From: Escherichia phage KM01
Strand: one strand, 5' to 3'
Sequence record: PV018827
DNA length: 64,000 nt
Below are positions 55,331 to 57,412 of the stretch, piece after piece. The notes below the pieces were generated by a model. It made no database searches and was not told where the DNA came from. It was given only the letters and a program-made list of their open reading frames with translations. Numbering within the stretch: position 1 is the first letter of the stretch; every line of letters starts with the position of its first letter. The translations under genes were made by a program, and so were the position numbers.

Positions 55331-57361
55331 TTAACCTCTATTCAATGAACATTTAGGAGAATTACAATAAACTTGATTCATAGAACCAAGCGTACAACTT
55401 TCAGCATCGCGCCACGGAATCTGCTTAAAACACTCTGAGCAGTACCCGAGGGTCGACCACATTGCTTTGGTGAAGTCAGTGCTTCGATTTCCATCAAAGC
55501 TGACGACAGTTTTGCGGAGAGCTGTTCGTGATTCAGGAAACACACCTGCTTTCTCAGCAGGTTCCTCCTTTTTTGGCTTAGTTGAGATTGCAAAAATACT
55601 GTTGCTACGTTTCTCAACATAAGCATCAACAACATCCTCCAGAGTGATGCCTGTCTGTTTCGCTGAGGAAGGTAATACAGTCATACGACCGATCATTTCT
55701 TCAGTTACACGTAAAGCAAACTCAGGACGACGGGCGTTTGTTGTATCTGTTGCTTTAATCCATACATAACCATCTTTGATCGTAGCATTAGATACTTTCT
55801 TCTTTACATCTACAGCGCAGACTTTACAGATATCTTCACCACGAAGACGACTAAGTTCTTCATCGAACTCATTCTCTGTTTTAACTTCACCGCAGATTTC
55901 ACAAACACCAATAGGAGTTTCCTCCTCTTCTTCATCTTTAGGTTTAGTCAAACCTTCCAGACATTCAGGGTGCCAGTAGCATTGATATGCGAAGACTGCT
56001 TTAGGTGCATCCTTCCAATCAATATGTTTGTCACAACCACCGCAATCGCCATGAGAGTGTGCTTCCCAGAATTTACGAGTGATAGTAACGCCATTCTTGT
56101 TGACGAAACTATCATTCATATCAAAAGGGATATCATCATCGAAGTCAGCAGTAGTAGACTCAGGCTCCTTTTTCTCCAGAGATGGGTCAACAAAACAACC
56201 TGCTGTGATCACTAAACGGACCATAGCATTGACTTCGGAGATGCAGGATACTGTCCCACGGTAAACAATTTTAGGGTCTTTCAGGGCATCCTGATAAGCC
56301 TTAATGTCTACGTTATGAACATCACCTTCGATGTACTCTTGAGACTTCTCATCGTAGATATAACCAATCATCTTACCACGAGAAGGAACAGCACCGGCAG
56401 TTGCATAAGGAACAAACTCATGCGGAGTGATTTCCACAGTCATATCGCGGCGAATATCAATATTTCGATCGCTTGCGATTTTGTTTTGACTTACCACTGC
56501 GTTTCTTCGACGAACGTCTGCCGCTGTCACTCCCGGCTTCGTGTCGTAAGGATTGCTTGTACTGCTTTTTGAGGAACTTTGATAGTTGCTTTGGCTGTAG
56601 TTGTTCGAGTAGTAATTGCCCCAACGATTGACTACCGTAAAAACCGGAAGCTCGTGGGCGACCTCTTCAACCAGAGTCATGCTGTTGTTTGACATATCAA
56701 AGATATATTCTGTACCAACTTTACATTCAAAATGCTCATCAATACGGTTCTTGTGAGATCTAGAACGCTTCAGAATCCACATCAACATGTCTTCTTCAGA
56801 AGCACCAAACCAATCTCTGTTACAACGTGCGAGGTGGAATGGACGCTCTTCGTTACGGATGATATGAAGACGGTTATCAGAAGCATCATGCCAGATTAAG
56901 GTGAAAGCACCATCCAGCTTTTGAATAGTCTCTGCTGCACCAATAGTGTTAATAGAGTGGCAGATGTTCTCACTGTCTACCTCGAAGTTTTTGCTGTCAG
57001 GTAACAGATCTTGGTCCATCAAGGTTCCGTTATGAACCAGAGTGATGTTACCATGTTGGAAAGGATGGGCGTTCTTGGCGTTAACTGCACCTTTCGTTGC
57101 ATGACGGCTGTGACCAACAATCCATGAAGGTGCTACAGTGTAAGCTGTTTCACCAGTGGTGTGCTTCTTGTACTCATCTTGTAGGATGAATGCGAAAGAA
57201 GGAAGAGCTTCTTTATAAGTGAAGACTTCCTTAGTGCTTTTACGCTGACCAAAGATACCGGAGGAATGTTGTCCTCGGAATACTCCAGCATAAAAGAGTT
57301 GGTTGAATACGTCTAAATCAGTGCTTGACAGATTACCGCCAGCTAATACGATGCCACAAAT
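55331..57361 (-). CDS. Class-II (Ntn) glutamine amidotransferase domain fused to a Cys-rich C-terminal domain; non-canonical start
   Basis: Upstream of track start the frame encodes CGIVLAGG...GQHSSGIF...GHSRHATKG...NAHPF...LVHNG; Cys codon 57356-57358 preceded by ATT, AAA, then in-frame TAG (57365-57367); C-terminal part has multiple CxxC pairs. Confidence 0.5.
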   Translation of the reverse strand: MCGIVLAGGNLSSTDLDVFNQLFYAGVFRGQHSSGIFGQRKSTKEVFTYKEALPSFAFILQDEYKKHTTGETAYTVAPSWIVGHSRHATKGAVNAKNAHPFQHGNITLVHNGTLMDQDLLPDSKNFEVDSENICHSINTIGAAETIQKLDGAFTLIWHDASDNRLHIIRNEERPFHLARCNRDWFGASEEDMLMWILKRSRSHKNRIDEHFECKVGTEYIFDMSNNSMTLVEEVAHELPVFTVVNRWGNYYSNNYSQSNYQSSSKSSTSNPYDTKPGVTAADVRRRNAVVSQNKIASDRNIDIRRDMTVEITPHEFVPYATAGAVPSRGKMIGYIYDEKSQEYIEGDVHNVDIKAYQDALKDPKIVYRGTVSCISEVNAMVRLVITAGCFVDPSLEKKEPESTTADFDDDIPFDMNDSFVNKNGVTITRKFWEAHSHGDCGGCDKHIDWKDAPKAVFAYQCYWHPECLEGLTKPKDEEEEETPIGVCEICGEVKTENEFDEELSRLRGEDICKVCAVDVKKKVSNATIKDGYVWIKATDTTNARRPEFALRVTEEMIGRMTVLPSSAKQTGITLEDVVDAYVEKRSNSIFAISTKPKKEEPAEKAGVFPESRTALRKTVVSFDGNRSTDFTKAMWSTLGYCSECFKQIPWRDAESCTLGSMNQVYCNSPKCSLNRG

Positions 57362-57412
57362 TTTCTAATCCACCTGAAGGGTAAACCCTTTCATCTAATT
57401 AACCTTTAAATT

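Follow-up and report, generated by a model that had tools for sequence, protein, structure and literature searches.

The subject of this report is the start of a predicted glutamine amidotransferase (GATase) gene in Escherichia phage KM01, a phiEco32-like podophage (Kuravirus, Gordonclarkvirinae). The DNA analysed, referred to below as the window, is a stretch of 64,000 nucleotides (nt) from record PV018827, and the gene, which lies on its minus strand, is the orthologue of phi32_83 of phage phiEco32. Comparison with homologous loci leads us to conclude that the ATT at 57361-57359, directly before the codon of the catalytic cysteine, is very probably the real initiation codon of the gene, and that translation would begin at AUU and be followed by removal of the methionine. 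The original prediction, made from the letters of the window, had set AUU initiation beside termination–reinitiation and amber read-through and chose none of them; the family comparison supports the first, while termination–reinitiation stands only as a possible aid to it. The coordinates then given, for a mini open reading frame (mini-ORF) and its TAG stop, for the AAA, ATT and TGT codons and for two Shine–Dalgarno (SD) sequences, were all correct on re-reading (Table 1), as was the observation that the amidotransferase domain is lost from the program-made list of open reading frames (ORFs). Scanning the frame from 57364 to 57023 revealed no ATG, GTG or TTG between the TAG and the TTG at 57022, and the list therefore shows only 55331..57022 (563 amino acids, aa).

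The codon before the catalytic cysteine

The codon right before the invariant cysteine (codon -1) was read as DNA at 60 homologous loci, drawn from GenBank phages, IMG/VR, metagenomes and homologue-encoding contigs, in a family of which 1501 homologues were counted. It is ATG at 34 of these loci, ATT at 24 and TTG at two, with no other codon seen, and nearly all of them show an SD-like motif in the 21 nt before the start; one further homologue (P0009) is called from GTG. Loci are named here by L-numbers where they need to be told apart, L019 being Aeromonas phage BUCT695. TTG occupies codon -1 at L052 and L074, and ATG in Privateer, SE131, L014, L015 and others, among which are the closest outgroups of the Kuravirus gene, all reading ATG-TGT: L014 and L015 at 63–65% identity, and Privateer, SE131 and others at 48–55%. 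The original prediction had counted an ATG at this position in related genomes as evidence against it. Distant relatives do have ATG, yet the finding stands, because the ATG there marks the ATT as the position of the start codon; that expectation was mis-specified.

On a neighbour-joining (NJ) tree, from which lineages were counted, ATT appears in at least five of them: Gordonclarkvirinae, BUCT695, L047/L068, L070/L072/L071 and L073/L075. The first of the metagenomic pairs, L047 and L068, comes from different samples and encodes proteins that are 81% identical behind the same ATT junction; a search of IMG/VR for relatives of L047 found none. At L047, L068, L073 and L075 the stretch from the last in-frame stop to the cysteine contains no canonical in-frame start, and ATT is thus the only start candidate that these loci share. 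The ATT alleles are further set apart by codon -2, which is AAA at 24 of 24 ATT loci (e.g. window 57359-57364; L071:1480-1485) and at none of the 36 loci with ATG or TTG. At L070, L071 and L072 the first two A's of this AAA belong to the TAA of the upstream ORF (UAA-A-AUU), and the same TAA-A-ATT string is found at L047, L068, L073 and L075, although the upstream ORF of L047 stops at an earlier TGA. Within the curated phiEco32 record, 112 of the 128 coding sequences (CDSs) start at ATG, 13 at GTG, two at TTG and one, this gene, at ATT. The features expected of an AUU start coincide here: AUG or UUG at the same position in homologues, a suitably spaced SD, a conserved AUU and no alternative canonical start that would keep the conserved N-terminus.

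Class-II amidotransferases need a cysteine at the N-terminus, which is reached by removal of the methionine or by cleavage of a propeptide, and the protein encoded from the ATT has every appearance of belonging to them. The open frame runs for 676 codons from the ATT and 675 from the cysteine, and its product matches phrog_4736 (E 6e-201) with the cysteine aligned to profile position 2, straight after the profile's methionine. Residues 1–240 are confidently predicted to form a class-II (Ntn) GATase domain, and its activity is likewise a prediction. This part of the protein matches Pfam GATase_6 (1e-14) and PDB profiles of the N-domains of GlmS, PurF and AsnB, and an AlphaFold2 model of the first 240 residues, in which a beta-strand begins at residue 2, reached pLDDT 93 and pTM 0.90 (a single-sequence structure prediction, with pLDDT 32, was not used). 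The best Foldseek match was 1xff (E 2.5e-13), and the 50 PDB matches listed are all of class-II/Ntn glutaminase type (GlmS, PurF, GFAT, AsnS, EgtC and TsnB9; TM 0.65–0.74). The fold predicted is the four-layer alpha-beta-beta-alpha one of Ntn hydrolases. C1, G2, R28, G29, N110, G111 and D128 are invariant in GATase protein alignments of 10 and of 59 sequences, I3-V4 are invariant in alignment A1, and the VHNG motif and the Asp of EVDSE align with VHNG and ETDTE of GlmS. These residues answer to the Arg (~26), the Asn-Gly of the oxyanion hole and the Asp (~123–127) that mark the glutamine site of the class. To this fold and these glutamine-site residues is added the place of the cysteine, right after a start-type codon at 60 of 60 loci. 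The phage protein thus shares with GlmS, PurF, AsnB, GFAT and EgtC the fold (E ~1e-13, TM ~0.7) and the conserved Arg, Asn-Gly and Asp, and the cysteine that those enzymes have at position 1 after methionine removal would be expected there likewise; it differs from them in a sequence identity of only 14–20% and in its C-terminal 430 residues, which are unrelated to known synthase domains and hold conserved cysteine pairs.

A different route to an N-terminal cysteine would start at the mini-ORF ATG (57394), with the amber codon read through or bypassed, and would yield a 12-residue propeptide (MKGFTLQVD-X-KI) that removes itself to expose Cys1. Propeptide removal does occur in the Ntn family, for example in Bacillus subtilis PurF, two entries of which (1ao0, 1gph) came up in the fold comparison, and the mini-ORF shares the GATase frame and is conserved, its ATG included. 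The TAG, however, is an ordinary stop: it ends 14 of the 128 phiEco32 CDSs, which excludes the genome-wide reassignment that had earlier been called unlikely on the strength of a neighbouring minus-strand gene (35036-35380) that does end in TAG, and phiEco32 and SU10 have no annotated tRNA other than a tRNA-Arg, no tRNA scan having been run. Moreover, the cysteine comes directly after the start codon at 36 of 36 ATG or TTG loci, which points to a family without a propeptide; L047, L068, L073 and L075 keep AAA-ATT-Cys without any in-frame canonical start upstream; and read-through leaves the constant near-cognate ATT at codon -1 unexplained. The propeptide of B. subtilis PurF belongs to an ORF that is continuous from its upstream start to the cysteine, whereas here an in-frame amber codon interrupts the frame and the ATG-type relatives have no propeptide. 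Amber read-through is therefore unparsimonious, and we consider it highly improbable.

Conservation, anatomy and use of the junction

An 801-nt query around the junction found matches in 96 GenBank phage records, 64 of them at 95–99% identity, and a 63-nt query holding the mini-ORF, SD, TAG and ATT (the leader) is matched in 98 records, with 100% identity in 68 and a single mismatch in 28 more. The latter are Suseptimavirus and relatives, in which the GATase is just 81–85% identical; in BUCT695 the leader is ~92% identical. The ATT is present at every leader-bearing locus whose DNA was read, the TAG is conserved along with it, and the mini-ORF is kept in Kuravirus, Suseptimavirus and Bas89, and with two substitutions in BUCT695. 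Copies of the leader also occur in IMG/VR and metagenome contigs, which come from different platforms and laboratories. A sequencing or assembly error in the TAG or the ATT, or a private mutation, had nothing in its favour but the oddity itself, and is refuted by a cassette that is identical or nearly so in some 98 independently sequenced phage genomes and recurs in these contigs.

The same region stands out when the window is compared with Suseptimavirus SU7, with which it shares an identical 58-nt block. No exact match in the 18-kb early region (46–64 kb) is longer; exact matches of 40–50 nt occur elsewhere in this region, so the block ranks first but is no extreme outlier. Across 10 Gordonclarkvirinae sequences a run of 46 nt is invariant, against a permutation maximum of 21, and the leader is fixed at each nucleotide even though synonymous sites in the adjacent CDS are saturated. 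The N-terminal domain itself is under purifying selection: over codons 1–112, upstream of the TTG, the ratio of non-synonymous to synonymous change (dN/dS) is 0.065–0.10 when the window is set against genomes of Suseptimavirus type; synonymous sites there are saturated (pS 0.64–0.77), and neither stops nor indels occur across genera.

These figures bear on the possibility that the amidotransferase domain is not made, translation starting at TTG 57022 or at an internal ATG and the N-terminal part being a decaying remnant. Several records are annotated in this way: the CDS of Paul (MN045231) begins at the TTG and has 563 aa, that of SU7 (MZ342906) begins 27 nt beyond the cysteine codon, at an internal ATG, and that of BUCT695 (NC_070977) at an internal ATG downstream of the cysteine; many RefSeq entries of Kuravirus likewise use a later TTG or ATG. 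Of 40 records sampled across the 98 that carry the leader, six show a CDS that covers the ATT, 32 lack one there and two carry no annotation, and of the 120 metagenomic homologues that match the L047 protein best, 21 are called without the cysteine (eight of these calls were read as DNA, giving seven ATT and one TTG). The product of the SU10 gene, gp85, was detected with 9 peptides and 23.7% coverage at an expected mass of 63.8 kDa (PMC4281155), which is exactly that of the TTG-truncated model, the full protein having 76.1 kDa. The proteomics table thus gives the truncated model, though the SU10 GenBank record has the ATT start, and the database searched evidently held the 563-aa version; because that model was used, the SU10 data show that the ORF is expressed and cannot report its N-terminus. 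Against a remnant speak the strong purifying selection on codons 1–112 (dN/dS 0.07–0.10), the invariance of all catalytic residues and the ATT/SD cassette, which is the most conserved stretch of the early region. We find it hardly credible that the domain is not made, and the inactivated gene considered in the original prediction fails on this selection and on the detected peptides; an additional shorter isoform is possible.

If AUU is decoded as we propose, ribosomes would bind AGGTGG, 8 nt upstream, and the initiator tRNA would read AUU as formylmethionine, after which deformylase and methionine aminopeptidase would strip the methionine, an expected step because cysteine is permissive as the second residue, and expose the nucleophile Cys1. 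The mature N-terminus expected from this route is CGIVLAGGNLSSTDLDVFNQLFYAGVFR. Removal of methionine before cysteine is standard for class-II amidotransferases. Translation of the gene is probably low, AUU being a weak start that IF3 discriminates against. The mini-ORF stop, 3 nt before the AUU, probably hands terminating ribosomes over to it, and the mini-ORF, if translated, probably also melts weak local structure over the SD; the net effect would be SD-directed AUU initiation combined with termination–reinitiation, with a low, buffered output. At other loci a full upstream ORF ends 1–10 nt before the AUU, encoding an amidoligase at L071 and an HNH endonuclease at L047 and L070.

Confirmed AUU starts are very rare, and for Escherichia coli only infC and pcnB are given (bioRxiv 10.1101/063800); in Enterococcus faecalis an ATT start attenuates the expression of EbpA (PMC4447247). 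The thrS-infC junction is a close likeness, as its AUU is likewise preceded by an SD and by an upstream stop exactly 3 nt before (UAA GGU AUU, compared with UAG AAA AUU here), and for a reporter with the infC junction UAA-GGU-AUU its authors suggested approximately equal reinitiation and de novo initiation (PMC3592434). The two differ in that the upstream ORF of infC is a full gene, whereas that of the phage is a 9-codon mini-ORF known from sequence alone, and in that the infC AUU serves autoregulation by IF3, a feedback logic of which none is evident for a phage amidotransferase. With pcnB and ebpA the phage gene shares a strain-conserved ATT, a well-spaced ribosome-binding site (RBS) and a downstream canonical codon misannotated as the start (PMC4447247; bioRxiv 10.1101/063800). 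Those two were verified by mutagenesis and reporters, whereas the phage case is a comparative one; unlike theirs, its start position is also fixed by enzyme chemistry, as the cysteine must become residue 1.

Several observations weigh against this account or parts of it. Near-cognate starts, AUU included, reach 0.02–3% of AUG in E. coli reporters (bioRxiv 10.1101/063800), and in another system they were 6–8 times below AUG and GUG (PMC3592434); on such figures the yield of GATase could be very low. The sole proteomics found, that of SU10, is blind to N-terminal peptides, and we infer the N-terminus from the gene. Invariance at every nucleotide over ~55 nt exceeds what an SD and a start codon need and is not fully explained. 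The coupling of the mini-ORF to the AUU is the weaker part of the proposal: the SD of the mini-ORF itself pairs poorly (-3.4 kcal/mol) and is missing from BUCT695, where AAATG stands instead of AAAGG; ATG loci, too, often have stop–start gaps of -1 to 4 nt; at L073 and L075 the gaps to the nearest upstream ORF are 22–35 nt; and the predicted leader structures are weak and ambiguous. The idea that coupling is specific to ATT alleles was rejected, since ATG alleles frequently show such tight gaps.

The excess of conservation would be accounted for if the ~55-nt invariant leader were chiefly an operator for an RNA-binding regulator, autogenous or encoded by the phage, or another RNA signal, with the mini-ORF incidental. 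The leader does not vary even between lineages with saturated synonymous sites, which is more than SD, spacer and start need, and the AAGGG-TTTA-CCCTT stem within the mini-ORF survives in BUCT695, where the sole change to it falls in the loop. Elsewhere in the window, however, no copies of the leader or its sub-motifs were found beyond chance 8-10-mers, and a motif that is single in the window is not a regulon operator. An Rfam scan of the leader gave no family (only a sub-threshold chance match, astro_FSE, with 17.6 bits where the gathering score is 70), folding of the 116-nt leader region is weak (z = -1.8), exact matches of 40–50 nt are not peculiar to the leader, and horizontal spread of the cassette, as in the tree discordance with BUCT695, could also yield identity. 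Pattern scans of IMG/VR for variant cassettes returned the same five phages and three chance matches without a GATase ORF. One candidate structure, a hairpin GGUUUACC/GGUGGAUU that would sequester the SD in the minimum-free-energy fold, is unsupported, as both BUCT695 substitutions break its pairing. An operator role for the leader seems improbable to us; it is compatible with AUU initiation, to which it would add and which it would not replace.

Table 1. Positions of the features discussed, in the window or, where so marked, at other homologous loci
Feature	Position	Strand	Remarks
GATase CDS from ATT (proposed)	55331..57361	-	676 codons, ~76.1 kDa; phi32_83/SU10_085 orthologue
Class-II (Ntn) GATase domain (predicted)	56639..57358	-	residues 1-240; profiles, model, invariant residues
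TTG, first canonical in-frame start	57020..57022	-	start of truncated 563-aa, 63.8-kDa model
58-nt block identical in SU7	57354..57411	-	
TGT, catalytic N-terminal Cys (Cys1)	57356..57358	-	followed by GGC ATC GTA (CGIV...)
ATT, proposed AUU initiation codon	57359..57361	-	position of ATG/TTG in homologues
AAA, codon -2	57364-57362	-	between TAG and ATT
Mini-ORF ATG-AAA-GGG-TTT-ACC-CTT-CAG-GTG-GAT-TAG (MKGFTLQVD*)	57365..57394	-	9 codons, GATase frame
Mini-ORF stop TAG	57367-57365	-	3 nt ahead of ATT
Mini-ORF start ATG	57394-57392	-	
SD AGGTGG	57370..57375	-	8 nt 5' of ATT; anti-SD duplex -5.9 kcal/mol
Small hairpin AAGGG-TTTA-CCCTT	57377..57390	-	within mini-ORF, directly 5' of SD; -4.6 kcal/mol
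Weak SD-like AAAGG	57403..57407	-	8 nt 5' of mini-ORF ATG; duplex -3.4 kcal/mol
Terminator-like hairpin GTGCCTCT-GACAA-AGAGGCAC	57413..57433	-	interval between amidoligase gene and leader; fold prediction
Upstream gene, Amidoligase_2 family (phi32_84 orthologue)	57441..58544	-	stop 79 nt before ATT
Intact HNH_3 homing endonuclease gene	L047:675-1127		ends at ATT
Intact HNH_3 homing endonuclease gene	L070:1053-1514		ends at ATT
Homing endonuclease gene remnant	L072:1299-1478		3' 60 codons only
Homing endonuclease gene remnant	L019 (BUCT695):1304-1510		N-terminal fragment, same place

Homing endonuclease genes beside ATT alleles

A gene for an HNH_3 homing endonuclease (homing endonuclease gene, HEG), or a remnant of one, lies exactly between the amidoligase and GATase genes at L047, L068, L070, L072 and in BUCT695. 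HEG homologues were found at these five loci only, all beside ATT alleles, and at none of the 36 loci with ATG or TTG. The HEGs of L047 and L070 are 72–73% identical and the GATases that flank them ~50%, so that their phylogenies are discordant, and L069, the closest relative of L047 (80% identical), carries no HEG, and its GATase starts at ATG behind a leader of another kind. The cassette, for its part, is shared by BUCT695 and Gordonclarkvirinae although lineages with ATG lie between the two on the NJ tree. Taken at the level of sequence comparison, this distribution suggests that the AAA-ATT junction moves with a homing endonuclease or is selected by one.

A fuller account would make AAA-ATT the footprint of a mobile element as well as a weak start under selection for low expression. 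On inserting between the two genes, the HEG would bring SD-AAA-ATT with it as its 3' junction, and the change from ATG to ATT, with AAA at codon -2, would alter the highly conserved ATG-TGT-GGN-ATH-GT target and block cleavage, conferring immunity; in Kuravirus the HEG would have been lost, and the mini-ORF would have taken over the delivery of ribosomes that the HEG or amidoligase ORF performs elsewhere. We regard this account as doubtful, though worth stating. The link is weak for the window itself, where no HEG homologue is present at the locus and the similarity of the leader to a HEG 3' end is marginal at the nucleotide level (p ~0.05). That the leader is a fossil of such a 3' end is not established, given this p value and the GGATTA-type RBS, which is ancestral, being found too in ATG relatives that have no HEG (L042, L021, Privateer). 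Free-standing phage HNH_3 HEGs are of the same type as those in the relatives' junctions; the window differs in having no HEG, and the cleavage sites are only putative. Two endonuclease genes were also noted in SU7 (MZ342906). The homing endonuclease gene at 39422-39898, beside DNA polymerase genes, shows distant similarity to the HEG of L047 and L070; the HNH endonuclease gene at 60467-60937, within the amidoligase cluster (SU7_85), shows none.

Neighbouring features and significance

In the phage gene cluster the GATase gene has as neighbours genes for an Amidoligase_2 protein, a phiEco32-type COOH-NH2 ligase and an ATP-grasp enzyme; the literature searched, to which the original phiEco32 papers and Iyer et al. 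2009 do not belong, yielded no function for this amidoligase/GATase cluster. The C-terminal ~430 residues of the GATase (window 55331-56638) gave no Pfam domain match. In the homologues' C-terminal part two C-x-x-C pairs are nearly invariant (columns 524, 527, 558 and 561 of alignment A2, which left out the window protein's own C-terminus), and the window protein carries several C-x-x-C motifs of its own; these cysteine pairs suggest a zinc-ribbon-like module.

Between the amidoligase gene and the leader, the hairpin at 57413-57433 is a candidate terminator, with a weak T-run. Its stem letters vary with pairing retained, reading GCGCTCT/AGGGCGC in SU7 and GTGCCTC/GGGGCAC in Bas89, the changes among Kuravirus, SU7 and Bas89 being compensatory or involving G-U pairs, and record WFI101126 has an annotated terminator under this region. 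After the hairpin the leader reads TTTAAAGGTTAATTAG (minus strand), and the mini-ORF ATG follows. The motif TTAAATGTAAA is common to the ATG-type loci L014, L015, L006 and L007 and to BUCT695, ~20–30 nt upstream of the GATase start; it resembles the phiEco32 gp36 promoter motif tAATGTATAtA (PMC4281155). At the homologous place the window has TTTAAAGGTTAAT, which may reflect the loss of a phage-sigma promoter. An antisense sigma-70-like promoter on the + strand at 57325-57352 (TTGACA, 16 nt, TACGAT; 10/12 match) would, if real, send RNA across the leader from within the first GATase codons; it is probably due to chance, as SU7 does not keep its -35 and the match count equals the shuffle expectation. 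Farther away, at 9126-9823 and 43428-44989, the window matches SU7 letter for letter over long runs of up to 392 nt, where the genomes are otherwise ~70% identical, a sign that the two genera have recently recombined into mosaics.

That phi32_83 starts at ATT, the central point here, is not new, since the records of phiEco32 (EU330206, 2008), SU10 and Bas89 already annotate a 2031-nt CDS starting at the ATT, and an AUU start with an infC-like junction is a known kind of phenomenon. The new elements are the AAA-ATT signature across the family, in at least five lineages, the widespread misannotation and the link to homing endonucleases. Truncated gene models drop the catalytic cysteine, the TTG model removing 113 residues of the enzyme domain, and any prediction of function or proteomics database that relies on such models, like that of the SU10 study, has the N-terminus wrong. 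Set beside the rarity of confirmed AUU starts, ~100 coliphage genomes and several metagenomic lineages carry a conserved AUU here, and, with the start pinned by enzyme chemistry and an infC-like junction before it, the gene would offer a clean natural system for the study of near-cognate initiation and reinitiation during infection. The link to homing endonucleases, if true, would be a case of a selfish element shaping the start codon of a host gene.

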